From: Candidatus Anoxychlamydiales bacterium
Lineage (GTDB): Bacteria; Chlamydiota; Chlamydiia; Chlamydiales; SM23-39
DNA length: 64,000 bases
Assembly (NCBI GenBank): GCA_011065125.1
Contig: JAAKFI010000002.1
Location: forward strand, 23-64,022
Reading direction: 5' to 3'
The translations under genes were made by a program, and so were the position numbers. Numbering within the stretch: the stretch's first letter is position 1; each line of letters starts with the position of its first letter. The notes under the pieces are model-generated. The model searched no databases and was not told the origin of the DNA. It saw only the letters and a program-made list of their open reading frames with translations. This document shows positions 4,492 through 43,926 of the stretch, piece after piece.

Positions 4492-4508
4492 AAAAAGGTT
4501 AATTAATA

Positions 4509-6605: not shown

Positions 6606-6616
6606 GTAAGTAACTT

Positions 6617-6943: not shown

Positions 6944-6952
6944 TTAAAAATG

Positions 6953-6978
6953 ATAGAAGCTTTATAAAAAGCTTCTAT
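6953..6978. terminator. Hairpin between convergent rpsJ and the BamE-like gene (possible bidirectional terminator)
   Basis: ATAGAAGCTTT (6953-6963) / loop ATAA / AAAGCTTCTAT (6968-6978), a perfect 11-bp stem. A U-run follows on the minus-strand reading (CAUUUUU); the U-run on the plus reading is weaker. Confidence 0.55.
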
Positions 6979-6996
6979 TGTTAAATCTTTAATATT

Positions 6997-7329: not shown

Positions 7330-7820
7330 AAATTATCTTCCTCATCTTCAATTTTATTATCTTCTTTTTCTAAATTAGGTGGAAGCCAAAGTTTTCCATC
7401 TATTTGGGTTCTAAATTGATCTGAGGTAACATATTCAGCATGCATTATATAAGTCCCATCTTTTTGAAGATGATAAGTTTCATAACCTTCAAAATTTAAA
7501 TCATTTTCTCTAAACTCCCAAGCTATCATATTATCATTATATACACCGGTTCCAACAACTCTTCCTATGTTTAAATTTTCCATTTCAATGCTAAATTTCC
7601 CTTCAGTGAAATCATAAAATGTAAATTCATTTCTCATATTTTCTGAAATTCCAGAAATTTGAATTTCTTGAACAGATTGTATTTTACCTGCAAAGTCTGC
7701 TTCATTAACGCTCCATTTGGTGAAGAAATTCAAATCTTCTTCAACCATATTTAAGGTTATTATACCCTCACCTATCCAAGATTTAGAATCAAATAAAAAT
7801 ATATGTTTATTATTTTTCAA
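7326..7820 (-). CDS. Hypothetical protein, predicted beta-rich, acidic C-terminal tail
   Basis: The track ORF (to 7943) overlaps the SEDS gene by 127 nt. More likely starts are TTG at 7818-7820, which overlaps the SEDS TGA as TTGA, or ATG at 7748. I recognise no family. Confidence 0.5.
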   Translation of the reverse strand: MKNNKHIFLFDSKSWIGEGIITLNMVEEDLNFFTKWSVNEADFAGKIQSVQEIQISGISENMRNEFTFYDFTEGKFSIEMENLNIGRVVGTGVYNDNMIAWEFRENDLNFEGYETYHLQKDGTYIMHAEYVTSDQFRTQIDGKLWLPPNLEKEDNKIEDEEDNL

Positions 7821-8953
7821 AACACAAATCTCCTTGTATAAATATTTTGTAGTATCCCAAGAGCACTCATTGTTGTCAAAACTGAGTTGCCTCCATATGT
7901 TATTAATATTAAAGGAACTCCAGAAATTGGCAAAAAACCACACATCATGGTTATATTTACTATAATATGCATTGCTAAATAAACTGCAATACCAGAAGCT
8001 AAAAGTCTGCCATAATAATCTTTTGCATAGTTAATAACCCCAAAGCTTATATGTACAAGTAAATAAAAAATAAATAATAAAAAAAGAACGCCTATTAACC
8101 CAAATTCTTCTGAATATGCAGGAAATACTGAGTCTGTATGAGCAGCAGGCAGCCATTTTTGCGAAGCAAACTCACTTTTTTTCCAACCTGATCCTGTAAT
8201 ACCACCAAGAGCAATTGATGTTTTAGCAGCATTTTGATGATAGGTTTTAGGGTTAAATCTGGCATATTGGTATTCTTTAATAACTTTAGTAAAATAAGGT
8301 TTTAATTTTTCATGTGATAAAACATTTGTAAAGATTAATACGACTAAAAAAATTAAACTAAGACCTATAAAGGACATTGAATAAATAATCTTTTTATTGA
8401 TATTTGCAAAATAACACATTATTAATGTTATTGGATATAAGACTAATGCAGTTCCAAGATCTGGTTGTTTTAAAATCAATATAAAAGGTATCCCCACGAT
8501 AAATAAAAGTTGAATAATTGTTAAAACTTTATCCTTTTCTCTTTCTTTTTTTTCTAAAAACCATCCCAAAGCCATTACAACAATTATTTTAGCAAATTCT
8601 GATGGCTGTACATTCATATTTATAAAAGGAATCCTATACCATCTATGAACACTTTGGATTGGTTTTGCAATATATAAACCTAAAAGTAAAACAATCATTA
8701 AAATATATAAAAAAAAAGATACTTGATAAAATCTTCTATAATCAAATCCTGCAAAAAAGAAAAAAACTATCCATCCTAAAATAAACCATTTTATTTGTGA
8801 TTTTACATATGGAGTAAAAAATAAATTTTTATCTACAGTAAAATCTGTCATAGATGAGATAACCATTAAACTTATTATCATAAGTGTAATAATTGCTACA
8901 ATCATCTTTAAATCTAGTTTTAATAATGGTCTATGATCCCACATAATTATCAA
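7817..8953 (-). CDS. SEDS-family peptidoglycan glycosyltransferase (FtsW/RodA/SpoVE)
   Basis: About 10 TM helices. Conserved C-terminal block LPAAHTDSVFPAYSEEFGLIG...GFLPISGVPLILITYGGNS. The start is TTG 8953 or ATG 8944. Confidence 0.9.
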   Translation of the reverse strand: MIIMWDHRPLLKLDLKMIVAIITLMIISLMVISSMTDFTVDKNLFFTPYVKSQIKWFILGWIVFFFFAGFDYRRFYQVSFFLYILMIVLLLGLYIAKPIQSVHRWYRIPFINMNVQPSEFAKIIVVMALGWFLEKKEREKDKVLTIIQLLFIVGIPFILILKQPDLGTALVLYPITLIMCYFANINKKIIYSMSFIGLSLIFLVVLIFTNVLSHEKLKPYFTKVIKEYQYARFNPKTYHQNAAKTSIALGGITGSGWKKSEFASQKWLPAAHTDSVFPAYSEEFGLIGVLFLLFIFYLLVHISFGVINYAKDYYGRLLASGIAVYLAMHIIVNITMMCGFLPISGVPLILITYGGNSVLTTMSALGILQNIYTRRFVF

Positions 8954-25137: not shown

Positions 25138-25989
25138 ATGCCAACTTTAGTTGAAACAGATACCTATTTAAATCTACTTTTGTCAATTCCCGGATTGAAC
25201 CCCAATACTATTTTATCTGCTCTTTTTTTAAGTTTAGCTAGAATTTTTCCAATAACAATGCTCGCTCCTTTTTTTGGCGCAAAAAATGTACCCGCTCCTG
25301 TTAGAATAATGTTTAGCTTATCCCTGCTAGCAATTTTGCTGCCTTCCATATTATTAAACTTAAAAGTAAATATTCCATTTGATTTAAATTACATAGGCTA
25401 TCTTTTAAAAGAGTTATTTATTGGTTTTATTTTAGGGTTTTTGGTAGCTATCCCCTTTTTTATAGCTCAATCCGCAGGATCTTTAACAGATCATATGAGA
25501 GGAGCTCAATCCTTGCAAGTTACCGATCCTACAACAAATTCTCAAACAGGACCTATTGGAATTTTTTATAACTATGTTTTAATTACTATATTTTATTTTA
25601 TTGGAGGACCATTTATTTTTTTAGAAGCTCTTTCAAAATCTTATATTATAATTCCAATTAATAAATTTATAAACCCTCTTTTTTTCTCTTTAAAATTACC
25701 AATTTGGAAATTAATAATTGGCCTTTCTAATTATATTTTAAGTATGGCTATACAACTAGCCGCTCCTTCTTTAATTGGTGTTTTAATGGCGGAGATGTTT
25801 TTAGGGATCGCTAATAGATTAGCGCCTCAAGTTCAAATAGTTTTTCTTGGGATATCCTTAAAATCTTGGGTGGGATTAGCACTTTTAGCTGCTGGCTGGT
25901 ATTTTATTATGATACAACTTGGAAAAGAATCGGAAAATTGGCTTAAGGTTATTCAAACAACATTAGATCATACAAAAAAATTCATGTAG
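25138..25989 (+). CDS. sctT: Type III secretion export-gate protein SctT (CdsT; FliR family)
   Basis: 283 aa, about 6 TM. FliR-like pattern with the gene order R-S-T. Confidence 0.9.
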   Translation: MPTLVETDTYLNLLLSIPGLNPNTILSALFLSLARIFPITMLAPFFGAKNVPAPVRIMFSLSLLAILLPSILLNLKVNIPFDLNYIGYLLKELFIGFILGFLVAIPFFIAQSAGSLTDHMRGAQSLQVTDPTTNSQTGPIGIFYNYVLITIFYFIGGPFIFLEALSKSYIIIPINKFINPLFFSLKLPIWKLIIGLSNYILSMAIQLAAPSLIGVLMAEMFLGIANRLAPQVQIVFLGISLKSWVGLALLAAGWYFIMIQLGKESENWLKVIQTTLDHTKKFM

Positions 25990-27199
25990 ATAATTTAGCT
26001 ATTACTTCTTTTAAAGAATTAATAAAATAATCTATATCTTCAAATGTTGTATATATTCCAAAAGAAATTCTAAGAGTTGATTCAACATTAAACCTTTGCA
26101 TTGTAGGTTGTGCACAGTGATGACCTGTTCTAATTGCAATTTTTTTCATATCTAAAAATGTTGCTACATCCATTGGATGAAGATCTTTTATTATAAAACT
26201 AATAACAGATCCTTTGTTTTTGCTATCACCTATTATTTTTAAATTTTTTATCTCTTTTAATTTAGAAGTTGCGTAATTTAAAAGCTCTTTCTCTCTTTTG
26301 TAAATATTATCCATGCCAATTGTTTCTAAATAATCCATAGCATCTTTAAAAGCTATTATAGCTGCAATATTAGGAGTTCCCGCTTCAAACTTTAAAGGAG
26401 CTTTTTGATATGTAGTTTCTTGATTAAAACTAACCGTCTCTATCATATCCCCTCCTCCTTGAATAGGAGGCATCATTTCTAAAATATCTTCTTTAGCATA
26501 TAAAACTCCAACACCAGTTGGTCCATACATCTTATGAGAAGAAAAAACATAAAAATCTGAGTCTAAATCTTGAACATCAACTTTTTGATGTGCTATAGCT
26601 TGAGCCCCATCTACCAAAACTAATGCAGAGGTTTTACTTCTAACTTCTTTAATAATTTCTTTTACTGGATGAATAATACCTGTGGAATTTGCCATATGAG
26701 CAATACATACTAGTTTTGTTTTATCTGATAAAAGTGTTTTAAAATAATCAATATCAATTTCAGCATTTTCATTTACTTTAGCTACTTTTAAAATTGCATT
26801 TTTTTCTTTGCAAAGCATTTGCCATGGAACAATATTTGAATGATGCTCTGTTTCTATAATTATAATTTCATCTGATTGCGATATATTTTTTTTACCAAAG
26901 CTTAAAGCTACTAAATTAATACTATCAGTTGCACCTTTTGTAAAAACTATCTCATTTGAACTTTTAGCATTTATAAAAGACTTTAATTTATTCCTTGTCT
27001 CATCATATCTAATAGTTGCTTTTTTAGAAGGAGCATATATGCCTCTATGTACTGTTGCATATTCATTTTTATAAAAATGATTTAATGAATCAATTACGCT
27101 CTTAGGTTTTAAAGAGGTTGCTGCCGTATCTAAATATACATAAGCATTTTCTTGCAGCAAATAAGGGAAATCTTTTTTTATTTTATCAATATCAAACAT
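25982..27199 (-). CDS. sufS: Cysteine desulfurase SufS (class V aminotransferase)
   Basis: YLDTAATSLKP...HHSNIVPWQ...FSSHKMYGPTGVGVLY...RTGHHCAQP. Last gene of a sufBCDS block. Confidence 0.95.
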   Translation of the reverse strand: MFDIDKIKKDFPYLLQENAYVYLDTAATSLKPKSVIDSLNHFYKNEYATVHRGIYAPSKKATIRYDETRNKLKSFINAKSSNEIVFTKGATDSINLVALSFGKKNISQSDEIIIIETEHHSNIVPWQMLCKEKNAILKVAKVNENAEIDIDYFKTLLSDKTKLVCIAHMANSTGIIHPVKEIIKEVRSKTSALVLVDGAQAIAHQKVDVQDLDSDFYVFSSHKMYGPTGVGVLYAKEDILEMMPPIQGGGDMIETVSFNQETTYQKAPLKFEAGTPNIAAIIAFKDAMDYLETIGMDNIYKREKELLNYATSKLKEIKNLKIIGDSKNKGSVISFIIKDLHPMDVATFLDMKKIAIRTGHHCAQPTMQRFNVESTLRISFGIYTTFEDIDYFINSLKEVIAKLST

Positions 27200-27206
27200 A
27201 ATTTTT

Positions 27207-28433
27207 TTATAAGTAATTTTTTGTTTTTTCTTCTTTTATATTTTTGTCTTCAATTTGCTCTAAAATTTCTTTTATGAAAGAAAATATTAAAATATTTTGA
27301 GCTTTTTTTTCATTAAAGCCTCTTGTTTTTAAATAAAACATATCTTCTCCATCTAAATTAGAAGTAGTAGCGCCATGCGTTGCTATAACATCATCTGTAA
27401 AGACTTCTAAATTAGGTTTTGTTGTAACAGTGGATAAATCATCTAAAATAATATTTTTATTTATTTGATTACTCTTAGATAATTTGGCAATTGAATTCAT
27501 ATATACATTAGATTCTAAATAGAATTTAGAATTCTCATTTAAAATGCTTTTATAAATAAATAAAGAATTAGTTTCTTTATTTAAATGATTGATTTTTACA
27601 TTAGCAGAGATTTGATTTTCATTTATTAAATGAGATAAAAAATATAAGCTAACGCCAGCATTTTGCTCTAATAAATCAATGTTATAGTCTTGCTTTAAGT
27701 TTTTAATATTTTTTGTGAGATTCACTATTTTTAAATTAGATTTTTTTTCAACTTTTGCTCTTATAGAATCAAAATAAAATGCATTTTCACAAGCATTAGA
27801 GTCTTGAAAAATTGATAGATTACTGTCATTATTTAAATTTATATCTATTAATTGATTAAAAAATGATGGCTTTAAATTTTTTTCAATCTTAATTGTATTA
27901 ACTGAAGCATTTACATTTTTTTCAACATTGATAAATATTCTACTAGCTTTATGAGAGCTATCTTTAGTGATTATATTATAAATATTTATAGGATTTGAAA
28001 TAGTTGTGTTTTCTTTTATATTTATATATATACCATTTAAAAAGGCTGTATTTAAAAGACAAAAAATATTTTTTTCTACTTCTAGAGATTGTAAAAAGTG
28101 CTTTTGCAAAAATAAAGGATATTTTTGCATAGCTTTATTTAAATCTAATATTTCGATGTTTTTATCAAATATATTATTTTTTAAATAACTTCCATTTAAA
28201 AAAATAATAGAATTTTCTCTATTGCTAATAGACTCTTTATCTTCTTGATTAGCCGTATCGTTTATAAATGAATAATCAAATAATCTATTTAAAAAATTAT
28301 TTTTTAAAATATCTTTTTTATTAAAAATTTCAAAGTCTTTATTTCTTAAAACAGATAAGAAATCATCTTTTGGATTTTTTTCAAATTGCTCATTTATATT
28401 AAATAAAAAATTGTCTATTAGATTTTTAGTCAT
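27207..28433 (-). CDS. sufD: Fe-S cluster assembly protein SufD
   Basis: C-terminal HGATTSNLDGEDMFYLKTRGFNEKKAQNILI. Sits between sufC and sufS. Confidence 0.88.
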   Translation of the reverse strand: MTKNLIDNFLFNINEQFEKNPKDDFLSVLRNKDFEIFNKKDILKNNFLNRLFDYSFINDTANQEDKESISNRENSIIFLNGSYLKNNIFDKNIEILDLNKAMQKYPLFLQKHFLQSLEVEKNIFCLLNTAFLNGIYINIKENTTISNPINIYNIITKDSSHKASRIFINVEKNVNASVNTIKIEKNLKPSFFNQLIDINLNNDSNLSIFQDSNACENAFYFDSIRAKVEKKSNLKIVNLTKNIKNLKQDYNIDLLEQNAGVSLYFLSHLINENQISANVKINHLNKETNSLFIYKSILNENSKFYLESNVYMNSIAKLSKSNQINKNIILDDLSTVTTKPNLEVFTDDVIATHGATTSNLDGEDMFYLKTRGFNEKKAQNILIFSFIKEILEQIEDKNIKEEKTKNYL

Positions 28434-29166
28434 TTAAAAAATCATACCCTTTTTCTTCTAAAATTTTAGCAAAATTATGATCTGCGGATTTAATTATTTT
28501 ACCATCTTTTAAAACATGTACAAAATCTGCATTGATATAATTTAAAAGCCTGTCATAGTGAGTTATAATGATTAAAGAGTTATTTTCATTTTTGAAATGA
28601 TTGATTGCATTAGCAGCATCTTTAATCGCATCAATATCAAGACCTGAGTCTATCTCATCTAAAATTGCTATTTTAGGATTTAATAAAAGCATTTGAAGAA
28701 GCTCATATTTTTTCTTCTCTCCCCCTGAAAAACCTTCATTTATTCCTCTATCTAAAAAAAATTTATTGAAATTTACAATTGTTATTTTTTCTTCTAAAAG
28801 ATCGTCAAACTCTTTTTTAGATAAAATTGGCATGTTGTTTGCTTTTCTATTTATGTTAACCATACTTTTTAAAAAGTTATAGTTAGATACATTTGGTATT
28901 TCTATTGGATATTGAAACCCTATAAATACTTTTTTATGAACTCTTTTTTCAATCTCTAAAGAAAGTAAATTTTCATTATCTAAAAGCACTTCACCTTTAT
29001 GTGGGATGAAATCCACATGCCCTGCTATAGCTTTCACTAAAGAAGATTTACCCATACCATTTGGACCCATAATAATATGCAGTTCATTTTTATTTACTTT
29101 AAGATTAAGTCCGTTAAGTATGTTTTTTTCATCTATTTTTACATGTAAATCTTTAATTTCAAACAT
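28426..29166 (-). CDS. sufC: Fe-S cluster assembly ATPase SufC
   Basis: Walker A GPNGMGKSS, ABC signature FSGGEKKK, Walker B ILDEIDSGLD. Confidence 0.96.
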   Translation of the reverse strand: MFEIKDLHVKIDEKNILNGLNLKVNKNELHIIMGPNGMGKSSLVKAIAGHVDFIPHKGEVLLDNENLLSLEIEKRVHKKVFIGFQYPIEIPNVSNYNFLKSMVNINRKANNMPILSKKEFDDLLEEKITIVNFNKFFLDRGINEGFSGGEKKKYELLQMLLLNPKIAILDEIDSGLDIDAIKDAANAINHFKNENNSLIIITHYDRLLNYINADFVHVLKDGKIIKSADHNFAKILEEKGYDFLND

Positions 29167-29170
29167 TTTA

Positions 29171-30601
29171 TTATCCCACCGAATTTTCTAATTTTATGGA
29201 AAGTAATTTTTGTGCTTCTATAGCAAATTCAAAAGGTAGGTTTTTTATTACCTCTTGACAAAAGCCTTTTATTAATATTTCTATTGCTTCTTCCTTTGAA
29301 AATCCTTTTGTTTGAAGATAAAATATTTGATCTTCACTTAACTTTGAAGTTGAAGCTTCATGTTCAATTTTAGAGGTTTTGTTTCTTGATATAATAGTTG
29401 GGAATGTACTTACAGAACAATTATTGCCAACTATCATAGAATCGCACTGTGTATAATTTTTTGCATTTGTTGCAATTGGCGTCATTTTAACAAGACCTCT
29501 ATAACTACTTTTAGAAAAGTCTGCTGATATGCTTTTTGAAATAATTTTAGATTTTGTGTTTTTACCTATATGTATCATTTTAGTTCCTGTATCAGCTTGC
29601 ATATTGTTATTTGTTAAAGCTATAGAATAAAATTCTCCTATTGAATTATCTCCTTTTAAAATACATGATGGATATTTCCAAGTAATAGCCGATCCTATCT
29701 CTACTTGAGTCCATGAGATTTTAGAGTTTTTTCCTTTGCAAAGACCTCTTTTTGTAACAAAATTATAAATACCAGTATCTTTTTTATCTTTATCTCCCGG
29801 ATACCAGTTCTGAACAGTTGAATATTTAATCTCAGCTGAATCCAAAGCTATTATTTCAACTATTGCTACATGCAATTGTGATTTTAAATGAGCAGGGGCG
29901 CTGCACCCTTCTAAATAACTTACATATGAATTTTCATCGGCTATAATCAAAGTTCTTTCAAATTGACCAATTCTTTGATCATTAATCCTAAAATAAGTAG
30001 ATAGTTCTATCGGACACTTTACATTTTTGGGTATATATATAAATGACCCTTCAGAAAAAACACAACTATTTAAAGAAGCAAAAAAATTATCATCTATTGG
30101 AACAACACTTCCTAAATATTTCTTTATTAAATCAGGATATTTTTCAATAGCTTCAGATATAGGACAAAAAATTATCCCCATTTTTTCTAATTTTTTTTTA
30201 TGAGTAGTACCAATAGACACCGAATCAAAAACTATATCGGTTGCTACATTATTTAATTTTTTTTGCTCTTCTATAGATATCCCTAGTCTATCTAATGTTT
30301 TTAAAATCTCTTTATCAACTTCTTCTAAATTATCTAATTTTTGTTTCTTCTTGGGTTCTGAAAAATATGAGATGTCTTGATAGTTTATATTTGGATAATC
30401 AAGATTAGCCCATTTAGGTTCTTTTTTGTTTTTAAAAATAGAAAATGCTTTAAGTCTAAAATCTAAAATAAAATCCGGTTCATTTTTTTTTAAAGAAATT
30501 TTTTTTATAACATCTTCATTTAATCCCTTGTCAAAAGCAATAGATTCAATGTTGGTTGTAAAACCATATTTATAATTTGAATTTAAAATATCTTCTTTCA
30601 T
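29171..30601 (-). CDS. sufB: Fe-S cluster assembly scaffold SufB
   Basis: 476 aa. [26 protein letters not shown] and other SufB core blocks. Confidence 0.95.
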
Positions 30602-32619: not shown

Positions 32620-33618
32620 ATGAATTTAATGCAAAAAGAGCCAAACTTAAAATTTGGCATTACTATTACTATTTTAGCTTATTTTTGTTTTTCTATTTGT
32701 TCCACATTAGTTAAAATTTTAAGTCCCAATTTCTCAATTATGCAAATTCTATTTATTCAAAATAGCATCGCACTTTCTATTATTTTTCCTTATTTTTATA
32801 AAAATAGAAAAAAAAATCCTAAATTAAAAATATTTCGCCTACATCTAATTAGAGATTTAACAGGAATTTTTAGTTTTTTTTGTTATTACTTTGCTATAAA
32901 AAAAATAAATTTAGTAGATGCTACACTTCTTGCGTATACAGCTCCTTTTTTTACTCCTATTATATGGACAATATGGACAAAAGAAAAAATGGAAAAAGGT
33001 ATTTGGTGGACCATAATTCTTGGATTTATTGGCATCGGTTTTTTGTTAGAACCTAAAGAACATATGTTTCAGACTAGTTCTTTTATTGGCATAGGTGCTG
33101 GCGTATTATCTTCGATAGCTTTAGTTTCTATAAAAAGATTAAATCAAAAATTAGAATCCTTAACCAAAACTACCTTTTATTATTTTTTAGTAAGTTCCAT
33201 TGTCACTTTGCCTTTTGCCATATATCAATGGAAAACTCCTGATATTTATCAAATTTCTCTTCTTTTAACAATGGGGATTTTAATGGCAATAGGACAGCTT
33301 TTTTTAACAATAGCTTATAAACATGGAACCGCTTCATTTTTATCTCCACTATGTTATTCAACAATAATATTTATAGGAATCATAAGTATTATATTTTTTA
33401 ATCAAATTCCTTCTTACCTATCTTTAATTGGAGCTATTTTAATTATTTTAGGGGGAACTATATCGTATATTTTAAAAATCAAGCCTTCTCATTTCATGAA
33501 GTTATTTGAACATTCAAAAGAAGATAAAAAACATTGGTGGCGAAAATTAAAACTTCATCGCAAAAATCTTATAGATCAAGAAAAAGAAAAAGAAAAAGAA
33601 AAAAATATTAATCCTTAA
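32620..33618 (+). CDS. EamA/DMT-superfamily transporter
   Basis: 10-TM layout with two EamA-like halves. The C-terminal tail carries an EKEKEKEK repeat. Confidence 0.8.
   Translation: MNLMQKEPNLKFGITITILAYFCFSICSTLVKILSPNFSIMQILFIQNSIALSIIFPYFYKNRKKNPKLKIFRLHLIRDLTGIFSFFCYYFAIKKINLVDATLLAYTAPFFTPIIWTIWTKEKMEKGIWWTIILGFIGIGFLLEPKEHMFQTSSFIGIGAGVLSSIALVSIKRLNQKLESLTKTTFYYFLVSSIVTLPFAIYQWKTPDIYQISLLLTMGILMAIGQLFLTIAYKHGTASFLSPLCYSTIIFIGIISIIFFNQIPSYLSLIGAILIILGGTISYILKIKPSHFMKLFEHSKEDKKHWWRKLKLHRKNLIDQEKEKEKEKNINP
33580..33603. repeat. (GAAAAA)x4 hexanucleotide tandem repeat in the 3' end of the EamA gene
   Basis: Read directly: gaaaaa gaaaaa gaaaaa gaaaaa. The unit length is a multiple of 3, so copy-number change would stay in frame. 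Confidence 0.9.
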
Positions 33619-35209
33619 ACTCTTTATGGTAATCATTTAATACTTCTTTTATGGCTTTACCAATCTTCATATAATCATCCACTATTAGATTTGCAAGAGA
33701 TACCCTAAGCGAATAATTTGGTCCTTTAAACCCTTCTCCAGGTAAACATACAACAAATTTTTCTTCTGCTAACTTAAATAAAAACTCTAAAATATCTACA
33801 TTTTTAGTTAAGTGCTCAGCAAATTCTAATGAGTATTCTTGTTTAGCAAGTTCCTTAATATCAATTAAGGCATAATAATAAGTATTATCTTTTTCATTTG
33901 GTATTTTCAAATGTAAATTTTCATATAAATTAGTTATTCTTTTTACTAAAATCCCATGAATTTCTTTTTTGTAATCTTTTTTCACATCTATAATGTCATA
34001 TAATGAAAAAAGAGCCATAATCACTTGAAGAGGGCATGAAAGTCCTCCAGTGTGAGCTAAAGCTGAATCTCTACTATCCATTTCTAATCTATCTATAAAT
34101 TTTATTTTTCTAGGCTCTGTTGTAATACTTAAATATCTCTTATCTATTTCTTCTTGAATTTCTTCAGGTAAATCTTTTATCAATTTATCTATTATACAAT
34201 CTTCATGAAGCATAATAACGCCAAGTCTATAGCCTGTAACGCCAAAGTATTTTGAATATGAATATACACATATTGTGTTTTTAGGAATTTCTTTGATAAC
34301 TGAATGAAACCCATCAATAAAATTAGAATAAACAGTATCCGTTATAACTATTAAATCTTTTCTATCTTTTTCGACAATATCTGTTATTTTCTTTAATGTT
34401 TTGTCATTTATAGCAATTGAAGTTGGATTTGTTGGATTTACCATATATAATGCTTTAATAGATGGATCTTTTAATTTTTCAATTTCACTATCTGGTATTT
34501 GCCATTCATTAAATTCATCCCCTTCAATAAATATTTCTTCTAATTGAAACTCATGAAGTTTTGGGATTTCTAAATATGGAGAAAAAATAGGTGTTATAAT
34601 TGCTATTTTATCTTTAGGAGTTACTAAATTATTATATTTAAGTGAATTAAATATATAAATCATTGCAGCGGTAGCCCCTTCAGTAGCAAAAACGTCATAT
34701 TCCCCTTTTACAAGTTTTTTATCTGGGCAAAGTATTTGCTCCAAGTATTTTGTTACTATAGTTTCTACATGAGGAAAAATTCTAGGGGGCATAGGATAAA
34801 AATCGCCTAGTGCTGCATCAGCAAATTCAAATACAAACTCATCTTCTTCAAATTTATATTCTTTAATTGCAAAATCAATCGCATTTTTTAAAAAATCTGC
34901 TGCTTTATTATCTTTAATTTCATTTATGTAATCTTGAAATTCCTTGTAAATATTTTCTTTATCCAATCTAAATGCAACATCTGCAAACTCAGACTTAGAA
35001 GCTGCTAGATGAACTGCAAAGTTAGAAAAAATAACAAAGGCCTCTCTTACAATTGTATTAAAAAAATTGGGATTACCTCTTCCTGCATTTAAATATTTAT
35101 CATATTTTTTACCTTTTTTACTAAAACTTGTTTGAGCTGTTTTAATAAGTAAATCTTTTACCTCAAAAGGAGATAATTCATGTAATTTTTTAAAATCCAC
35201 TTTTTTCAT
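33608..35209 (-). CDS. asdA: Aspartate 4-decarboxylase (L-aspartate beta-decarboxylase, PLP-dependent, AsdA/AspD type)
   Basis: 533 aa, about 130 aa longer than ordinary class-I aminotransferases. The N-terminus LSPFEVKDLLIK...YLNAGRGNPNFFNTIVREAF matches the AsdA N-terminal signature as I recall it. PLP-lysine block YSYSKYFGVTGYRLG. Confidence 0.75.
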   Translation of the reverse strand: MKKVDFKKLHELSPFEVKDLLIKTAQTSFSKKGKKYDKYLNAGRGNPNFFNTIVREAFVIFSNFAVHLAASKSEFADVAFRLDKENIYKEFQDYINEIKDNKAADFLKNAIDFAIKEYKFEEDEFVFEFADAALGDFYPMPPRIFPHVETIVTKYLEQILCPDKKLVKGEYDVFATEGATAAMIYIFNSLKYNNLVTPKDKIAIITPIFSPYLEIPKLHEFQLEEIFIEGDEFNEWQIPDSEIEKLKDPSIKALYMVNPTNPTSIAINDKTLKKITDIVEKDRKDLIVITDTVYSNFIDGFHSVIKEIPKNTICVYSYSKYFGVTGYRLGVIMLHEDCIIDKLIKDLPEEIQEEIDKRYLSITTEPRKIKFIDRLEMDSRDSALAHTGGLSCPLQVIMALFSLYDIIDVKKDYKKEIHGILVKRITNLYENLHLKIPNEKDNTYYYALIDIKELAKQEYSLEFAEHLTKNVDILEFLFKLAEEKFVVCLPGEGFKGPNYSLRVSLANLIVDDYMKIGKAIKEVLNDYHKEFKD

Positions 35210-35210
35210 A

Positions 35211-36626
35211 CTATTCTACCTTTTCATTTTTTTTTGGTTTCCAGGATTCTTTTTTAGTTTTAATTATTAAAATTGGTAAAAGAATCAAAACAACTATGAA
35301 AATCGCAAGGGTTAACATATATATTTTGGGGTCTTTATCAGATAATTCTTTCGGAGGGAAAAAAGAGATAAAGATGCAAAATAAAGATGTTATTATTCCA
35401 ATGCTTGCAACTATCCACATACCAATATTTTTAAATGGTACTTTATATTTACGGTTAACTTTTGGCTGGGAATATCTTAAATGTATTCCCGCTATAAACA
35501 TCAATACATACATAGTTAAATAAAGCATAATACTAAGTGCTACTGAATAGAAAAATGCTATGTTTAATTGAGAGAATAATAAAAGAGATGCTAAAATAAT
35601 AGAAACTGAAATAGCTTGAATGATTAGCAAGTTAATCGGAGCTTTTGCTTTATTTGTTTTTCTAAAAAATTTTGGTAGATCACCATTTAATGCAGATTCA
35701 TAAACTCCTTTAACAGGTCCCATTAACCAAGTAACAATACTTCCCGTTTGGCCAATAGCTACTAAAATAGCCATTACAGGCACAAACCATTTTAAATTAA
35801 AGTCTGTTAGAAATAGATCGATTGCTTGTAAAATTCCAGCAATCAAACTTAAATCTTTAACAGGCACTATACTTCCAACTGAAAAAGATCCTAATATAAA
35901 TAATATAAACCCAATTAAAACAACTGCAAATATCGCAATCGGATAGTTTTTTTTAGGATTTTCAACGTTATTAGCATGAACAGCCGATGCTTCCAATCCA
36001 GCATAAGATCTTATAAATCCTATTAATAGAACTAAACTAGAAAGTTGTGAAAAATCGGGAATTAAAGATTTTTTTGTAAAGCTTAAATCTATTTGAATTG
36101 GTTTATTAGAAAACCAATAAATTATTCCTAAAGTTATTATTACAACTCCAGGAAACGCAACTCCTGATAAAAAACCAATTTTACTAATTTTAGCTGAGAG
36201 AGTAATTCCTTTAGAATTTAAATAAGTGCTTCCCCATAAAATAATTAAAGAAACTATAAGTAAAAACAATCTGCTTTTAGCTAAGTTTGGATCGATTACA
36301 TAAGCAAGTGAACCTGCAACAAAATAAAGCATTGCTATTTGTGAAATCATCATATAACTCCACTGCATCCATATCGCAAAAAAACCTGCTTTCTCTCCGA
36401 ATGCTTCCCTAACCCATATGTATATACCACCTCTTTTAGGCCAACCTGTTGCAAGCTCTGCTGACACAAAAGCTGCAGGGAGAGCAAACAAGATAGCAGC
36501 TAAAAGCCCAAAGAAAAACATTTTCATGCCAGTATCTGCTATCATCGGTAAGTTTCTAACACTTACCACAAAAGCAAGTGATACAAACATAATTGATGTT
36601 AAACTTAATTTTTTAAATTTCTTCAT
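35211..36626 (-). CDS. APC-superfamily amino-acid antiporter, GadC (glutamate:GABA antiporter) family, copy 1
   Basis: 471 aa. IPDFSQLSSLVLLIGFIRSYAGLEASAVHANNVENPKKNYPIA aligns by eye with E. coli GadC [44 protein letters not shown]. The C-terminal ...KVPFKNIGMWIV...FISFFPP block also aligns with GadC. Confidence 0.8.
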   Translation of the reverse strand: MKKFKKLSLTSIMFVSLAFVVSVRNLPMIADTGMKMFFFGLLAAILFALPAAFVSAELATGWPKRGGIYIWVREAFGEKAGFFAIWMQWSYMMISQIAMLYFVAGSLAYVIDPNLAKSRLFLLIVSLIILWGSTYLNSKGITLSAKISKIGFLSGVAFPGVVIITLGIIYWFSNKPIQIDLSFTKKSLIPDFSQLSSLVLLIGFIRSYAGLEASAVHANNVENPKKNYPIAIFAVVLIGFILFILGSFSVGSIVPVKDLSLIAGILQAIDLFLTDFNLKWFVPVMAILVAIGQTGSIVTWLMGPVKGVYESALNGDLPKFFRKTNKAKAPINLLIIQAISVSIILASLLLFSQLNIAFFYSVALSIMLYLTMYVLMFIAGIHLRYSQPKVNRKYKVPFKNIGMWIVASIGIITSLFCIFISFFPPKELSDKDPKIYMLTLAIFIVVLILLPILIIKTKKESWKPKKNEKVE

Positions 36627-36711
36627 AAGGAATTCTCTTTTTTTTCGTTCTTAATTTATGAAATATAAAAAAAAAGAATTAATGTCATATATAATCTTAT
36701 AAAAAGAGAAT

Positions 36712-38127
36712 TTATTTTTTGTAATTAGGGTTCCAAGAAGGTTTTTTTAATTTATGAATAATAAAAGGAATTGCAAATATTACTAAAACAAATATCAAAA
36801 TAGTTAATAAAAATTTAATATAATTTGTAACTTCTAATTGAGATGGCGGGAATACAGCCATAAGAAATCCTATAGTTACAGATGTCATTCCAAGAATGCA
36901 AACAATCCACATACCTATATTTTTAAAAGGGATTTTAAAAGATCTTTTTACATCCTTTCTTGTATACCTCAAACGAATAGCAGATAAAAACATTAAAAAA
37001 TACATTGAAAAATAAACCATCATGGCAACTACTAGGGCTATCCAAAAAGCAATATTTATATTTGCACCTAGTAACAAAAATAAAGATGAAGTAATCGATA
37101 TTATAAACGCTTGAATTATCATTAAATTAATAGGAGCATTTTTTTTGTTTACTTTTTGAAAAAATTTAGGAAGCTCTCCTTCTTGGGCTATTTCTAATAT
37201 GCCTTTTATAGGACCCATAAGCCATGTGCTAAAACCTCCGATTTGACCAATCGCAACAATAGTGCCAATAATTGGAAGTAAGTAAAGAAGATTGTTTTGA
37301 GATAAAAAATATCTGAAAATATTAATAATCCCTGCTACCAAATTTATATTTTCTTTTTTTTCAATTAATGCAATAGAAAAACCCCCGAAAACATTTATTG
37401 AAAAACATAAAAAAACTACAAATAAAATAGCGATGGGATAGTTTTTTTTAGGTTTTTTTACACTATTAGCATGAACAGCACTAGCTTCAATTCCTCCAAA
37501 TGCCCTCATAAATCCAATTAAAATTATTAAAGTTGATAAATTATTAAAATCAGGAAGTAAATTTTTAAAAGTAAAAGAGATATCTAAAATATTAGAACCT
37601 TGTAAAAAAAATTTTGTAAAGCTAATGGTTATTAATAAAATTGCTGGGAAAAAAATTCCTATAATAAAAAAAAACATTGAAATTTTAGTAGATACTTTTA
37701 ATCCTTTAGAGTTTAAATAAGTAAAAAGCCAAATAATAATTAGATTGCTACAAAGCAAAAAAAGTTTTTGGTTTGCTAAGTTTTCTGATATTGTAGAAGC
37801 AATAGTCCCCGATATAAAAAAAAGCATGGATATTACTCCAATGTTCATATAAGACCACTGAAGAAAAATTGCAACAAAACCCCACTTTTTTCCAAAAGCC
37901 TCCGTTACCCATACAGCTATACCTCCCATTTTAGGAAAAGCTGTTGCAAGTTCTGCTGAAACTAAAGCTATTGGTATATAAAAAAATATTATAGCAATCG
38001 TTGCAAAAAAGAACATTTGCATGCCTGTTGTTGCAATAAGAGGTAAATTTCTAATAGATATCCCAAAGGCTGATGCAACCATCATTAAGGTAAAAAGATT
38101 CATTACTTTTATAGGAGCTTTTTTCAT
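36712..38127 (-). CDS. APC-superfamily amino-acid antiporter, GadC family, copy 2 (tandem paralog)
   Basis: 471 aa, colinear with copy 1 and roughly half the positions identical by eye. It has the same GadC-type blocks (LPDFNNLSTLIILIGFMRAFGGIEASAVHANSVKKPKKNYPIA). Confidence 0.8.
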   Translation of the reverse strand: MKKAPIKVMNLFTLMMVASAFGISIRNLPLIATTGMQMFFFATIAIIFFYIPIALVSAELATAFPKMGGIAVWVTEAFGKKWGFVAIFLQWSYMNIGVISMLFFISGTIASTISENLANQKLFLLCSNLIIIWLFTYLNSKGLKVSTKISMFFFIIGIFFPAILLITISFTKFFLQGSNILDISFTFKNLLPDFNNLSTLIILIGFMRAFGGIEASAVHANSVKKPKKNYPIAILFVVFLCFSINVFGGFSIALIEKKENINLVAGIINIFRYFLSQNNLLYLLPIIGTIVAIGQIGGFSTWLMGPIKGILEIAQEGELPKFFQKVNKKNAPINLMIIQAFIISITSSLFLLLGANINIAFWIALVVAMMVYFSMYFLMFLSAIRLRYTRKDVKRSFKIPFKNIGMWIVCILGMTSVTIGFLMAVFPPSQLEVTNYIKFLLTILIFVLVIFAIPFIIHKLKKPSWNPNYKK

Positions 38128-38129
38128 GT

Positions 38130-39647
38130 TTATTCTTCTATGTATGCATTTTTAAAATCCATGAATCCAGATGAATGTAAATGAATATTTTTTAGTTTTG
38201 GATTTTTTAAATAATTTTGTGTCATATGATATAATGGCACTACACAAGATTCATCTAATAAATGATTTTCTGCTTGCATAAGAAGATTGTTTCTTTCATC
38301 TTCATCAAAGGTAATATCAGATTTGTCTAATAGAGAAATATATTTTTCACTCTCCCATAGAGTATTATTAGTTGAACTATTTTTATATTTAAAAACTTCT
38401 AAATAATTTATTGGATCATTGAAATCTACAATCCATGAACTAAGTGCTATTTCATAGTCTTGTTTTGAAATTTTTTCAAAATATGTTTTATTTTCTAAAG
38501 CATTTAATAAAACCTTAATTTTTAAATTCTTTTCAATATCTCTTTGAAGAGCTTGTGCTAAGATATGGTTTCTATTAGAAGTGGCATAAGTAATAGTTAC
38601 AGTTTCATTTTCAAAATTTAAATCCTCAAAATTAAATTTTTCCACATTTTGATCATTAAATATAAGTCTACTTGTATCTTTTTGATTTCCTTGTAAAATA
38701 TGATCTACTATCTTTTTTCTATTAATCGAAAAAGAAATTGCCTTTCTTAAGTTTTTATCAGTTATTTTTTCTATATTCATTCTCAAAAAAGCAATCCCAG
38801 AATATGGTTCTATATTAACTAATTTTTTTTCTTTTAATTTTTTCATACTATCTACTGGAAGTGCTGAAAAAGGAGAGCCTGCCCAGTCTAACTTTTTTTT
38901 CTCAAACATGAAAAGCTCGCTATCAATAGTTAAAATTAAAAAAGATATCTCATTTAATTTAACTTTATCACTATCATAATAATTTTCATTTTTAGAAAAT
39001 AATAATTGATCCTCACGAACCCATTTACTTAATTTAAAAGGCCCAGATGACACAAAATCTTTAGATGATATTGCCCAAGAAGGATTTTTTTTATCTAACT
39101 TACTATTTATAGCAAAAAAAGATGGATGTGTTAAAAGTTTTAAAAAATAAAATTTTGGAATTTCTAGTTCAATTTGCAACGTATTTTCATCTATTGCTTT
39201 AATACCTATATCATCTATTGAAATTTCATTATTTTTTGCTTTTTTAGCATTTTTTATTACAAATAAATTATATGCAGAAGATGTAATAAAATCTTTTGAT
39301 AGAATCTTTTTATATGTGTATTCGAAATCATATGCTGTAATTTTTTCTTTATTTGACCAAAGAGCATCTTTTAATTTGAACGTATAAACTTTATTATCTT
39401 TTGAAATTTGATAGCTTTCAGCAAGGGCTAAGGATATAGATCCATCCTTTTCTTCTTTAACCAATCCTTCGAAAAGACTTTTTACTAAATTGATTGAATT
39501 TAATGACCTAACCTTTCTTGGATCTAATGTATTCGGTTCAGATTCAATATTTAATGTGATTTTTTGTTTTTTTAAATCTTTTTTATTATTTGTACAAGAA
39601 GTGAAAATTATAAAAAAACTAAAAACAATAAATAATATACGTTTCAT
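38130..39647 (-). CDS. oppA: Oligopeptide-binding lipoprotein (SBP family 5, OppA-like)
   Basis: Lipobox IFTSC. ITLNIESEPNTLDPRK...LFEGLV...YTFKLKDALWSN... are typical SBP_bac_5 blocks. 505 aa. Confidence 0.85.
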   Translation of the reverse strand: MKRILFIVFSFFIIFTSCTNNKKDLKKQKITLNIESEPNTLDPRKVRSLNSINLVKSLFEGLVKEEKDGSISLALAESYQISKDNKVYTFKLKDALWSNKEKITAYDFEYTYKKILSKDFITSSAYNLFVIKNAKKAKNNEISIDDIGIKAIDENTLQIELEIPKFYFLKLLTHPSFFAINSKLDKKNPSWAISSKDFVSSGPFKLSKWVREDQLLFSKNENYYDSDKVKLNEISFLILTIDSELFMFEKKKLDWAGSPFSALPVDSMKKLKEKKLVNIEPYSGIAFLRMNIEKITDKNLRKAISFSINRKKIVDHILQGNQKDTSRLIFNDQNVEKFNFEDLNFENETVTITYATSNRNHILAQALQRDIEKNLKIKVLLNALENKTYFEKISKQDYEIALSSWIVDFNDPINYLEVFKYKNSSTNNTLWESEKYISLLDKSDITFDEDERNNLLMQAENHLLDESCVVPLYHMTQNYLKNPKLKNIHLHSSGFMDFKNAYIEE

Positions 39648-39820
39648 AAAATATTCCCTTATTTTCGTATTACATATTATCTTAAAGTAAAATTTTTTTA
39701 AACTTTTTAAATATAAAAGTATTTGTTATTTTTTTTAGTTTAATATCTTTCAAACTTCTTCCATTTTAAAATAAAAACTTATATATACATATTTAATAAA
39801 AGATAATTTAGGGTTTTTAA

Positions 39821-42046
39821 ATGAAGAAAATTGAAATTTCAATAGAAAATATGCATTGCTCATCTTGCGTAAAAAAAATTGAAGATGATGTAAAAAAAAT
39901 TGATGGCATAAAAAAAATAAATGTCTCCTTTGCAAACAACAAAGCATATATCGAATATGATGAATCTAAAATAAATCTAAATCAAATTTTCGAAGAAATA
40001 AAAAAAATTGGATACAAAGCAATTGAAAAAAATAATGATGAAAATTTACAAAATAAAGAAATAAAGTCTTATAAAATAAAATTTTTATTTTCTTTAATAT
40101 TTTCTATTCCTTTGATGTATCTAGCAATGAGCTATAATTATTATAAGATAGTTAATTTAAAAAGTTTATCTATCCTTCAATTTATACTAGCTAGCTTTGT
40201 AATAGCTTTTGGCTATAAGTTTTTTTACTATGGAATATTTTCATTAATTAAAACTAAAGCTGCAAATATGGATACTTTGATCTCTTTAGGAGTTGGATCT
40301 GCTTATATTTACTCAGTTTTTGCAAGTGTTAATATTTTATTAAATAATAAAAATTATGATCACAATAATTTATATTTCGAAATTGCAGCTTTTTTAATCA
40401 CTTTTATCTTACTTGGTAGATATTTAGAAACCCTTGCTAAAGGAAAAACATCTTTAGCAATTAAAAAATTAATGCATCTAAGCCCTAAACAAGCTAGGGT
40501 GATTAGAGATAATAAAGAAATTGAAATCCCAATAGATCAGGTAGTAATAAATGATATCATCGTTGTTAAGCCAGGAGATAAAATACCCGTTGATGGAGTT
40601 GTTATAGAAGGAGCCTCCTCAGTAGATGAATCCATGATATCTGGAGAAAGTCTGCCTGTCGAAAAAAAAGAAGGGACAAATGTAACTGGCGCTACTATTA
40701 ATAAAACTGGCAGCTTTAAATTTAAAGCCACAAAAGTTGGAAAAGATACAGTTTTATCTCAAATAATACACCTTGTAAAAGAAGCGCAAATGTCAAAAGC
40801 ACCTATCCAACAATTAGCTGATTTAATCGCTAAGTATTTTGTGCCAGTCGTTTTAATTATCGCAATAATTGCATTTTTAATATGGCAATTTACTTTGAAT
40901 GATTTTATGTTTTCTTTAACTATTTTTATTTCAGTGTTAATTATTGCATGTCCTTGCGCGCTTGGCCTTGCTACTCCTACTGCTATTATGGTCGCAACAG
41001 GAATGGGAGCAGAACTTGGCATTCTTATAAAAAATGCTACAGCTCTTCAAAAAATGAGCAAAATAAACTGTTTTGTTTTTGATAAAACAGGAACTTTAAC
41101 TGAAGGCAAGCCACAAGTTACTAATATCTATCCAATTGATATTAGTGAACAAGAAGCTTTAATTTATGCAGCCTCTTTAGAAAAAAAATCATCCCATCCT
41201 TTAGCTAACGCAATTATTGAAAAAGCCGATTTAGAAAAAATTAATATTAAAGAAATCAGTGATTTTTTAGAAGAAGCAGGCAAAGGCGCTAACGCTAGCA
41301 TTGGTAACAAAAAAGTTGCTATTGGAAATCAAAAACTAATGGATAAATTTAATATCGATTATAGTAAGCACTTAAGTACAATAGAGCATTTTATGGGAGA
41401 AGGAAAATCTATTTTACTTTTATCTATTGATAACAATTTAAAAGCAATTTTTGCAATTACAGATATGATAAAACCTCATGTTAAAAATGTTATCATTAAG
41501 TTAAATCAAATTGCATATGTTTTAATGATGAGTGGTGATAATAAAAAAACAGCTCATATAATAGCTACAAAAGCTAGAATTGAATATAACAATATCTTAG
41601 CTGAAATTTTACCTCAAGATAAAGCAAAAGAAGTAAAAAAACTTCAAGAAAAACACTTTGTTGCATTTATTGGAGACGGAATCAATGATGCTCCAGCTCT
41701 TAGCCAAGCAGATGTTGGAATCGCTCTATCTCATGGAACTGATGTAGCAATAGAATCAGGTGATATAGTTCTTATGAAAGATGATATTAGAGATGTGTAT
41801 AAATCTTTAAAATTATCTCAATATGCTTATAAAAAAATTAAACAAAATCTTTTCTGGGCATTTTTCTATAATGTTTTAGCTATACCAGTAGCTGCTGGCA
41901 TTTTGTATCCTTTTACTAATTTTTTATTAAACCCAATGATCGCTGGAGTTGCTATGGCTTTTAGTTCCGTGTCTGTTGTAACAAATTCCCTTTTAATGAA
42001 AAGGCATTTAAAAACTTTAAAAAGACCTTACTTTAAAAAAAATTAA
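39821..42046 (+). CDS. copA: Copper-translocating P1B-type ATPase
   Basis: N-terminal HMA domain with MHCSSC. TM6 CPC ([13 protein letters not shown]), phosphorylation site DKTGTLT, hinge [10 protein letters not shown]. Confidence 0.95.
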
Positions 42047-42597: not shown

Positions 42598-43926
42598 ATG
42601 TACAAAAATAAGAAAATAGCTCTTATTTTACTTATGGGAGGAGTTGGAAATAGATTCAGCTCAGACATCCCCAAACAATTTTATAATTTATCTGGAAAAA
42701 AAATTTATATAAGAACTTTAGATGCTTTTTATAAATTGAATATCTTTGATGAAATTGTTTTACCATGCAAAAAAGAATATATCCCCCAAGTAAAGGAAGA
42801 TTTAAAAGCTTACAAAAACATCAAAGTAATAGAAGGTGGAAGTACTAGACAAAAATCTTCTTACCAAGCACTAAAAAGCTTAAACAATCCAAATATTGTA
42901 GTAATTCACGATTCAGTAAGACCTTTTGTTAGTAAAAAAATAATTATTGAAAACATTTTAGCTGCTATTAAATATAAAGCGGTGGACACATGCATTAATT
43001 CTACTGACACCCTTGTAATAACACATGAAAATTTCATTAAAAATATCCCTAATAGAAATATTTTTTTAAGAGGTCAAACACCTCAAAGTTTTGAGTATAA
43101 ATTAATTTTATCAGCTCACGAAAAAGCTATAAAAAATAATATTTTAAATAAAACTGATGACTGCCAATTAGTTTTAGAAAATAACAAAGTTTTCATTGTA
43201 AATGGGGATGAAAATAATATTAAAATAACAACAAAATTAGATCTTTTTTTAGCAGAACAACTACTTAGATTGAAATTAGAAAAAGTCACTTTTAATATAA
43301 AAAATAAATTAGATAATAAAATATTTGCAATAATTGGAGCGAGTGGTGATATAGGCTCTGAAATTAGAAAAGAACTAGAAAAACAAAATGCTAAAGCTCT
43401 ATTAATTTCTAGAAATTCATACTATAAAACAGATATTACAAAATATAGTGATGTGAAAAGGACTTTTAATCTTATTTATAAAAAATATGGCAAAATTGAT
43501 GGGCTCATAAATGCATCTGGTCTTTTAGTCGTAAAAACTGTAGATAAAATCAAAGAAAAAGAAATCGATGAAATCATAAAAGTAAATTTACTAGGCTTAA
43601 TATATGTATGTAAATATGCAAAAATAAAAGATGGTGGTCATATAATAAACATTTCATCTTCCTCTTATACCTATGGAAGAAAAAATTATGGTGTTTACTC
43701 TTCTACAAAAGCAGCAGTTGTAAATTTCACTCAAAGTTTATCTCAAGAACTTGAAAAATTAAAAGTAAATGTAATTGTGCCTCAAAGATGTAATACTAAA
43801 ATGAGGAAAAAATACTTCCAAAATGAAGATCCTAAAACTTTATTAGATAAAAATAAAGTAGCTAAGGGAATAATTGATACATTAAAAAGTGACTTTACAG
43901 GATTAACTATTGAAATAAAGAAATGA
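42598..43926 (+). CDS. Bifunctional IspD/TarI-type cytidylyltransferase + short-chain dehydrogenase/reductase (Bcs1-like candidate CDP-ribitol synthase)
   Basis: The N-terminal half carries the IspD-family motifs MGGVGNRF...PKQFYNL, GGSTRQKSS, IHDSVRPF, GQTPQSF, TDDCQL and NIKITTKLDL.LAE. The C-terminal half is an SDR: IIGASGDIGSEI (Gly-rich NAD(P) loop), NASG, and SSSS...YSSTKAAV (catalytic YxxxK). Confidence 0.8.
   Translation: MYKNKKIALILLMGGVGNRFSSDIPKQFYNLSGKKIYIRTLDAFYKLNIFDEIVLPCKKEYIPQVKEDLKAYKNIKVIEGGSTRQKSSYQALKSLNNPNIVVIHDSVRPFVSKKIIIENILAAIKYKAVDTCINSTDTLVITHENFIKNIPNRNIFLRGQTPQSFEYKLILSAHEKAIKNNILNKTDDCQLVLENNKVFIVNGDENNIKITTKLDLFLAEQLLRLKLEKVTFNIKNKLDNKIFAIIGASGDIGSEIRKELEKQNAKALLISRNSYYKTDITKYSDVKRTFNLIYKKYGKIDGLINASGLLVVKTVDKIKEKEIDEIIKVNLLGLIYVCKYAKIKDGGHIINISSSSYTYGRKNYGVYSSTKAAVVNFTQSLSQELEKLKVNVIVPQRCNTKMRKKYFQNEDPKTLLDKNKVAKGIIDTLKSDFTGLTIEIKK

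Follow-up and report, generated by a model that had tools for sequence, protein, structure and literature searches.

A predicted aspartate:alanine exchange-decarboxylation pair of AsdA and a GadC-family carrier in Anoxychlamydiales and other lineages

In 64,000 nucleotides of DNA from Candidatus Anoxychlamydiales bacterium (assembly GCA_011065125.1, contig JAAKFI010000002.1, forward-strand positions 23 to 64,022; the whole stretch is called the window below), a gene for aspartate 4-decarboxylase (AsdA) lies directly downstream of a gene for a carrier of the GadC family, here called carrier 1. We think it reasonably likely that the two form a coupled aspartate:alanine exchange-decarboxylation pair, a prediction made from protein families, gene order and pocket residues. 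The pairing of AsdA with a GadC-family APC carrier, of a clade that we name after its arginine at position 206 (the Arg206 clade), was previously unrecognised, and no NCBIfam model reaches its cut-off for these carriers. An earlier reading of this DNA (the original prediction) had called the combination undescribed. That judgement agrees with our search, in which no paper, the Anoxychlamydiales and chlamydial pangenome papers included, paired AsdA with an APC carrier; this is a weak negative, as most subscription journals lay outside the literature searched.

In the cycle that we propose, carrier 1 would import L-aspartate, the beta-carboxylate being bound in a pocket formed by Arg206 and Tyr91; AsdA would turn the aspartate into L-alanine and CO2, using up a proton from the cytoplasm; and the alanine would leave through the same carrier. 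Exchange of Asp(1-) for Ala(0) would be electrogenic and the cytoplasm would be alkalinised, which would build up a pH gradient and a membrane potential independently of ATP and respiration. We infer the substrates, the antiport mode, the electrogenicity and the physiological role. Decarboxylase-antiporter modules as such are known, one for aspartate (AsdA with AspT) among them. In Tetragenococcus, Asp(1-)/Ala(0) exchange by AspT together with proton consumption by AspD generates proton-motive force (as summarised in PMC13631041). The pair in the window has in common with AspT/AspD of Tetragenococcus halophilus the decarboxylase family and a co-directional carrier gene directly upstream. The carriers, however, are different: AspT is an elevator-type protein of the AAEx family with TrkA_C domains between its two Asp-Al_Ex domains, whereas carrier 1 has the APC/LeuT fold, and the AspT-linked AsdAs belong to another subclade than the AsdA of the window. 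A GadC-family (APC) carrier would here replace the unrelated AspT (AAEx) in both role and gene position.

AsdA and carrier 1 in the window

The genes and codons on which the prediction turns are as follows.

33608 to 35209, minus strand: asdA, aspartate 4-decarboxylase (bifunctional aspartate transaminase/beta-decarboxylase), 533 amino acids, matching NF006755 and TIGR03801
34250 to 34252, minus strand: codon of AsdA Lys320, the pyridoxal phosphate (PLP)-binding lysine in the motif YSYSKYFG, aligned with Lys315 of the Pseudomonas dacunhae L-aspartate beta-decarboxylase (ASD)
35211 to 36626, minus strand: carrier 1 (APC1), Arg206 clade, proposed aspartate:alanine exchanger, 471 amino acids, AA_permease_2, 1 nt upstream of asdA
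36009 to 36011, minus strand: codon of APC1 Arg206, at the end of transmembrane helix (TM) 6a, clade-defining residue and proposed beta-carboxylate binder
36354 to 36356, minus strand: codon of APC1 Tyr91 in TM3, second clade-specific pocket residue, aligned with GadC Gln98 and AdiC Ala96

The enzyme is a bona fide aspartate 4-decarboxylase by family, with beta-decarboxylation predicted, because it passes both curated NCBIfam equivalog cut-offs (NF006755, 687.1 bits against a cut-off of 321; TIGR03801, 629 bits against 435) and keeps the PLP lysine. Models of ordinary aminotransferases score at most 97 bits, far under their own cut-offs. The protein is full-length against the expected architecture of ~530 amino acids and aligns with the P. 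dacunhae enzyme (2ZY3/2ZY4) at 402 bits across residues 5-531, with Lys320 opposite Lys315 and Arg44, the arginine of GRGNP, opposite Arg37, which we take to have a functional role; Lys320 and Arg44 are unchanged across 15 diverse AsdAs. The profile search that the original prediction had proposed for this gene therefore supports AsdA over a generic aminotransferase.

Carrier 1 matches AA_permease_2 in Pfam (217 bits), as does carrier 2, a second carrier gene of the same cluster. Against the GadC equivalogs TIGR03813, NF053662 and TIGR00910, carrier 1 scores 409, 389 and 349 bits, where the cut-offs are 650, 640 and 673, and carrier 2 scores 353, 310 and 288 bits, again all under cut-off. The TyrP model is among the three best NCBIfam matches of both (328 and 313 bits, cut-off 630), and AdiC-type models give just 44-78 bits. 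The nearest solved structure of carrier 1 is E. coli GadC (260 bits, GadC residues 9-465), and the AlphaFold model of carrier 1 (pLDDT 83.6, pTM 0.86) superposes on GadC chain 4DJI_A in Foldseek with a TM-score of 0.88, an rmsd of 2.4 and 32% identity. Carrier 1 is without the C-terminal plug of GadC: the alignment stops at GadC residue 465, and the plug presumably spans residues ~477-511. Neither carrier matches PF06826, the domain of AspT, for which an AspT control from locus L038 gives 207 bits (loci from our surveys are designated by L numbers), and a homolog search found no AspT, glutamate decarboxylase (GAD), tyrosine decarboxylase (TyrDC) or RarA homolog in the window.

Partner enzymes and pocket residues across the carrier family

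We surveyed the two genes from both sides. On the enzyme side, a profile was scanned against 185,579 species, each represented by one genome, and the best 80 AsdA loci were followed up. The AsdA homologs closest to that of the window (83%, 68% and 65% identity) lie in matching gene context. An AspT of ~570 amino acids, with two Asp-Al_Ex (PF06826) domains and TrkA_C, is directly upstream and co-directional in 31 of the 80 loci; in 6 others, and in L001-L004 besides, that position is taken by a carrier of the window's APC type. AspT and the APC carrier occur together in none of the AsdA loci surveyed. The APC-type loci come from Chlamydiota (L001-L005, L011 and L017, among them a Parachlamydiales in L005, Chlamydiae SM23_39 in L011 and a groundwater chlamydia in L017), Dependentiae (L006), an unclassified bacterium (L007) and Woesearchaeota (L008), and the carrier is upstream in those loci whose AsdA is closest to the window's. 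The co-occurrence of asdA with this type of carrier, for which the original prediction had proposed a survey, thus extends across phyla and occupies AspT's operon position, and the pairing is not peculiar to Chlamydiota. (A rougher proxy, the 30 contigs shared by the lists of AsdA and carrier matches, is superseded by these locus surveys.) As a separate observation, an M20 peptidase gene lies 3' of asdA in Chlamydiae SM23_39 (L011, 7662-8822).

On the carrier side, a profile built from 20 carriers was run against metagenome contigs and gave 80 loci, whose downstream neighbours were clustered and the cluster representatives scanned; 99 non-redundant carriers were placed in a neighbour-joining (NJ) tree with E. 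coli GadC as the root. Three kinds of decarboxylase recur 3' of the carrier in these 80 loci: AsdA in 10, GAD in 14 (TIGR01788, 659 bits, cut-off 380), and a TyrDC-like enzyme of 620 amino acids in 15-16, the substrate of which may differ from tyrosine because it scores 781 bits against a TIGR03811 cut-off of 905. In a fourth group, which includes a chlamydial clade with His91 and Leu206 (Rhabdochlamydia L165 and Simkaniaceae L166), the gene beside the carrier is rarA; in that clade it consistently follows the carrier, where no decarboxylase does. All 19 AsdA-adjacent carriers in the tree fall in a single clade of 39 (clade A; bootstrap 80/100), no member of which is linked to a GAD or TyrDC-like gene, and the sister group of 59 contains every GAD-linked carrier (14) and every TyrDC-linked one (15) and no AsdA-linked one. 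The carriers are therefore GadC-family proteins by fold, as the original prediction had it, yet they form a clade of their own. The family is partitioned by partner decarboxylase, which is the pattern expected of precursor/product exchangers. The GAD- and TyrDC-linked loci lie within L098-L164 (for example L102, 3578-6914, and L151, 1559-4376), and several of them come from the same sediment metagenome assemblies (SDBU/SDBV) as Anoxychlamydiales contigs.

It could be argued that the gene order is a historical accident with no functional link behind it, since unrelated genes are packed tightly in compact genomes and sister loci exist without asdA. Yet a carrier 1 ortholog is directly upstream of asdA in 18 loci besides the window, and the 19 non-redundant pairs range from a short overlap to ~230 nt apart, mostly <25 nt. 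This adjacency is held at ~50% protein identity across Chlamydiota, Dependentiae, an archaeon and unclassified lineages, while the flanking genes vary. Among carriers with room for a downstream gene, it is seen in 19 of 36 in clade A and in 0 of 53 outside it (Fisher p = 7.6e-10). Because the adjacency recurs to this degree, the arrangement is more than chance, and we give the accidental explanation a very slight chance.

The partition by partner is mirrored in the predicted substrate pocket. An unbiased search for specificity-determining columns, that is, columns that each of the three decarboxylase-linked groups conserves and in which the AsdA-linked group differs, returned four, positions 206 and 91 included. 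Position 206 is Arg in 39/39 carriers of clade A and in 0/60 outside it, where it is Leu (41), Phe (18) or Ile (1); most GAD-linked carriers have Leu206, as does E. coli GadC with its Leu212, and all TyrDC-linked carriers have Phe206. Position 91 is Tyr in 36 of the 39, and Gln, His or Glu elsewhere. In a HMMER profile alignment, Arg206 of carrier 1 stands opposite GadC Leu212 and AdiC Trp202 (LWSFIGVES; AdiC 3L1L), and Tyr91 opposite GadC Gln98 and AdiC Ala96. Both of these AdiC residues touch the side chain of the arginine substrate (PMC4970712). In the model of carrier 1, Arg206 ends the helix 201-207, immediately before the unwound stretch of TM6. An arginine at this position would fit recognition of a beta-carboxylate, because a basic residue at a side-chain contact is confined to the clade with an aspartate-consuming partner; leucine in the glutamate clade and phenylalanine in the tyrosine-type clade would fit the same rule.

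These residues bear as well on how the carriers are annotated. Public records label their relatives "glutamate/GABA antiporter" or amino acid permease, and if the former label were correct, both carriers would exchange glutamate (or glutamine) for gamma-aminobutyrate (GABA), and the adjacency of asdA would be incidental. That the best NCBIfam matches are GadC equivalogs and the closest solved structure is GadC speaks for the label. It nevertheless seems very unlikely to us, because those GadC models fall far short of their cut-offs, Arg and Tyr stand where GadC has Leu212 and Gln98, the C-terminal plug is missing, no glutamate decarboxylase is found in the window, and none of the 39 clade A carriers adjoins GAD, where 14 carriers of the sister clade do.

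A further possibility accepts the pairing and changes the substrate: enzymes of the AsdA family also form alanine from cysteine sulfinate by desulfination, so that cysteine sulfinate, or another anionic amino acid, might be what is exchanged for alanine. A pocket arginine would bind any anionic side chain, and the APC-linked AsdAs, which differ from the AspT-linked ones at 53 of 155 strongly conserved columns, group with AsdAs of Desulfobacterota that have no adjacent carrier. Set against this are the two aspartate 4-decarboxylase cut-offs passed by the enzyme and the recurrence of asparaginase as a neighbour, which points to aspartate. In Woesearchaeota (L008, 7560-8651) a secreted-type asparaginase, with an N-terminal signal of lipoprotein-like character, overlaps the 3' end of asdA, and an asparaginase adjoins asdA also in L040, L048, L071, L072 and L077, AspT-type loci included. 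We hold out little hope for a substrate other than aspartate.

The OppA-like gene, carrier 2 and loci without asdA

Around the pair of carrier 1 and AsdA, the window carries these further features.

36627 to 36711, no strand: AT-rich spacer of 85 nt between carrier 2 and carrier 1, read from the sequence
36712 to 38127, minus strand: carrier 2 (APC2), paralog of carrier 1 in the Arg clade, 471 amino acids, with the Arg208 codon at 37504-37506
38130 to 39647, minus strand: OppA-like family-5 solute-binding lipoprotein, N-terminus MKRILFIVFSFFIIFTSC, 505 amino acids, PF00496, 2 nt upstream of carrier 2
32620 to 33618, plus strand: membrane protein of the EamA/DMT family, in convergent orientation to asdA, the 3' end of which it overlaps by 11 nt

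The original prediction had described a single module led by oppA. Its account of the layout is borne out by the list of open reading frames (ORFs) of the window in that four co-directional genes (OppA-like, carrier 2, carrier 1, AsdA) are packed head-to-tail on the minus strand at 33608-39647, with gaps of 2 nt at the OppA side and 1 nt before asdA; the middle gap, given there as 84 nt, measures 85 nt. The complete order is also present in L001 and L004. Co-transcription of the cluster would fit the 1-nt and 2-nt gaps and the lack of a terminator-like site between the genes. A scan of 33300-40000 returned no promoter-like or terminator-like sites in the intergenic spacers, a result that is uninformative in DNA of 26% GC; promoter-like sites in this region are rarer than in shuffled sequence. 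An Rfam scan of the window returned four tRNAs only, and no leader or riboswitch.

The grouping of these genes into one module fares less well. The OppA-like gene is followed by carrier 2 at a distance of 1-30 nt in eight loci (L001, L004, L091, L093, L094, L096, L103 and L167), and carrier 2, which is limited to Anoxychlamydiales-like contigs and forms its own subclade nested inside clade A, always comes after an OppA-like gene. Because this pair persists where asdA is absent (L091, L093, L094, L096 and L167), a single oppA-led module is unproven: only carrier 1 is directly tied to asdA, and the OppA-like gene is tied to carrier 2. Nor are the two carriers duplicates in any recent sense, as the original prediction could be taken to imply. 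They share 49% identity and are old paralogs; this divergence, together with the separate subclade of carrier 2, rules out a recent tandem duplication. As a member of the same Arg-bearing clade, carrier 2 is probably likewise a transporter of aspartate or of some similar anionic amino acid.

The OppA-like protein matches PF00496 at 199 bits and has an N-terminus ending in FTSC. Among solved structures, B. subtilis OppA (8ARE) is the closest to it, at 315 bits, and against the OppA equivalog the protein reaches 204 bits, far under the cut-off of 947. Among the 34 ORFs of the window that were scanned, there is no oppBCDF, ABC permease or Opp-type ATPase. A binding protein conserved beside a secondary carrier, with no ABC permease or ATPase nearby, is unusual and could indicate functional coupling. 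One could go further and imagine the OppA-like protein and carrier 2 as an APC transporter assisted by a solute-binding protein, a third class beside TRAP and TTT. Such a unit would pass aspartate, or an aspartyl peptide product, on to an Arg206-clade exchanger, and the electrogenic Asp/Ala cycle of carrier 1 and AsdA would supply energy independently of ATP in anaerobic chlamydiae, Dependentiae and DPANN archaea alike. We regard this larger scheme as a long shot.

The site of asdA varies between relatives. Loci L091, L093, L094, L096, L101, L107 and L167 carry the OppA-like gene and both carriers, with Arg206, and no asdA (for example L167, SDBV01003730.1, 6989-13332). In these Anoxychlamydiales-type contigs, synteny with the window runs from copA to the type III secretion genes, and EamA and PgeF (peptidoglycan editing factor) genes come after the carrier 1-type gene, so that asdA is a presence/absence polymorphism at exactly this site. 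A tblastn search of nine asdA-less loci found no asdA remnants above noise, and the absence is therefore clean rather than a matter of pseudogenes. The carriers of the asdA-less loci nest among the AsdA-linked ones and retain Arg206, from which it follows that asdA was lost or moved. In L002, an Anoxychlamydiales contig, the cluster is interrupted differently, by an insert of ~7-8 kb (2196-8253) between the OppA-like gene with carrier 2 and carrier 1 with AsdA. Within it lie genes for an SSF-family transporter, an Asp/Glu racemase and an M15 (VanX-like) peptidase, besides several unknown ORFs, a content that hints at a connection with the metabolism of D-amino acids or of cell-wall peptides. 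The EamA gene is conserved beside the carriers with or without asdA (L002, L094, L096, L101, L107 and L167). Its product matches amino-acid exporter models weakly (YddG, E = 1.5e-8), and it is a conserved neighbour that we do not place in the system.

These loci lend weight to another account, in which an auxotrophic intracellular bacterium would use the Arg206-clade carriers to import aspartate (acidic amino acids), or as general exchangers, and AsdA is an optional addition that makes L-alanine for protein and peptidoglycan, with no obligatory cycle and no role in proton-motive force. The syntenic loci that keep both carriers, Arg206 intact, without asdA are what this account would predict; a PgeF gene is among the neighbours, a racemase and an M15 peptidase lie between the carriers in L002, and AsdA is annotated as bifunctional. 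It accounts less well for the facts that the carrier holds the exact position of AspT in classical asp operons and that the sister clades are paired with GAD and TyrDC-like decarboxylases, a hallmark of precursor/product antiport. Moreover, the characterised relatives GadC, TyrP and AdiC are obligate exchangers. We consider scavenging unlikely, if well worth taking seriously.

The exchange-decarboxylation pair thus remains the reading that we favour, and several considerations weigh against it. First, since the asdA-less loci keep their carriers, these carriers must be useful without an adjacent decarboxylase. Second, AsdA, being bifunctional, could serve alanine supply, not energetics. Third, the trees are NJ only; support for the carrier clade is 80/100, but the AsdA clade in which the APC-linked enzymes cluster with the carrier-less Desulfobacterota AsdAs has only 49/100, and because of the latter figure we do not claim a single origin. 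Fourth, we know of no assayed member of the Arg206 carrier clade, and of no biochemically characterised member of the APC-linked AsdA subclade. Finally, the low GC content makes the promoter and terminator scans uninformative, and the ATPase and the use of proton-motive force lie beyond what the window alone tells.

Energetics, known systems and the rest of the window

With no plug and with an arginine in the pocket, the carrier would be able to work on the anionic form of its substrate at near-neutral pH, a mode that would be better suited to membrane energisation than to acid resistance. According to a published account (PMC7449678), the Na+-translocating respiratory complex I that other chlamydiae have is missing from Anoxychlamydiales, which depend on fermentation together with a V-type ATPase and a Na+/H+ antiporter. 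Given this reported absence, an additional source of an ion gradient is plausible.

Compared with other decarboxylase-antiporter systems, the pair in the window is a mosaic. With GadC/GadB (4DJI/4DJK; TCDB 2.A.3.7) it has in common the fold of the carrier and a carrier gene beside that of its decarboxylase. GadC, however, has a C-terminal plug that gates it by pH, and Leu212 and Gln98 where the carriers of the window have no plug, and Arg and Tyr; GadB is a group II alpha-decarboxylase that yields an amine, whereas AsdA is a beta-decarboxylase of the fold-type-I, aminotransferase-like kind that yields a neutral amino acid. The likeness to TyrP/TyrDC of lactic acid bacteria lies in the TyrP model being among the best matches and in the sister clade with a TyrDC-like gene downstream; the pocket residue and the partner enzyme differ, and the TyrP score is under its cut-off. 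With AaxB/AaxC of Chlamydia, to our knowledge the only decarboxylase-antiporter pair known in Chlamydiota, the general principle is common, but AaxC is an AdiC-like carrier and AaxB a pyruvoyl enzyme.

Decarboxylation-driven antiport is among the simplest routes to membrane energisation. If our prediction is true, its aspartate/alanine version arose twice, on the unrelated AAEx and APC folds, and hundreds of "glutamate/GABA antiporter" annotations would need correction. The APC version is found chiefly in lineages that have small genomes, depend on a host or are anaerobic (Anoxychlamydiales-like chlamydiae, Dependentiae and Woesearchaeota), and it bears on the open question of how these lineages energise their membranes. 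Further, the way in which the pocket position tracks the partner (Arg with AsdA, Leu with GAD, Phe with the TyrDC-like enzyme) offers a testable rule of specificity within the SLC7/APC superfamily, which is of medical relevance.

The remainder of the window agrees with its chlamydial origin. EF-G (4509-6605) is 82-85% identical to Parachlamydiales and Candidatus Anoxychlamydiales proteins, and its named matches are all Chlamydiota. The type III secretion genes sctJ, sctL, sctR and sctT are present, and their order relative to glycogen phosphorylase, PgeF, EamA and copA is that of the Anoxychlamydiales contigs L002 and L167. The GC content of the window (1-64000) is 20-33%, with a mean of ~26%, which is very low for Chlamydiota, and its GC skew is negative nearly throughout. 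A sufBCDS operon for Fe-S assembly (25982-30601, minus strand) lies between sctT and PgeF and is not at that position in L002, L004 or L167. On the plus strand, 42598-43926 encodes a 442-amino acid fusion of an IspD-like cytidylyltransferase with a short-chain dehydrogenase, also found in L001. The fusion scores 184.6 bits against the D-ribitol-5-phosphate cytidylyltransferase model NF001183 (cut-off 166) and may point to a pathway of the CDP-ribitol type, which would be unexpected in a chlamydia.

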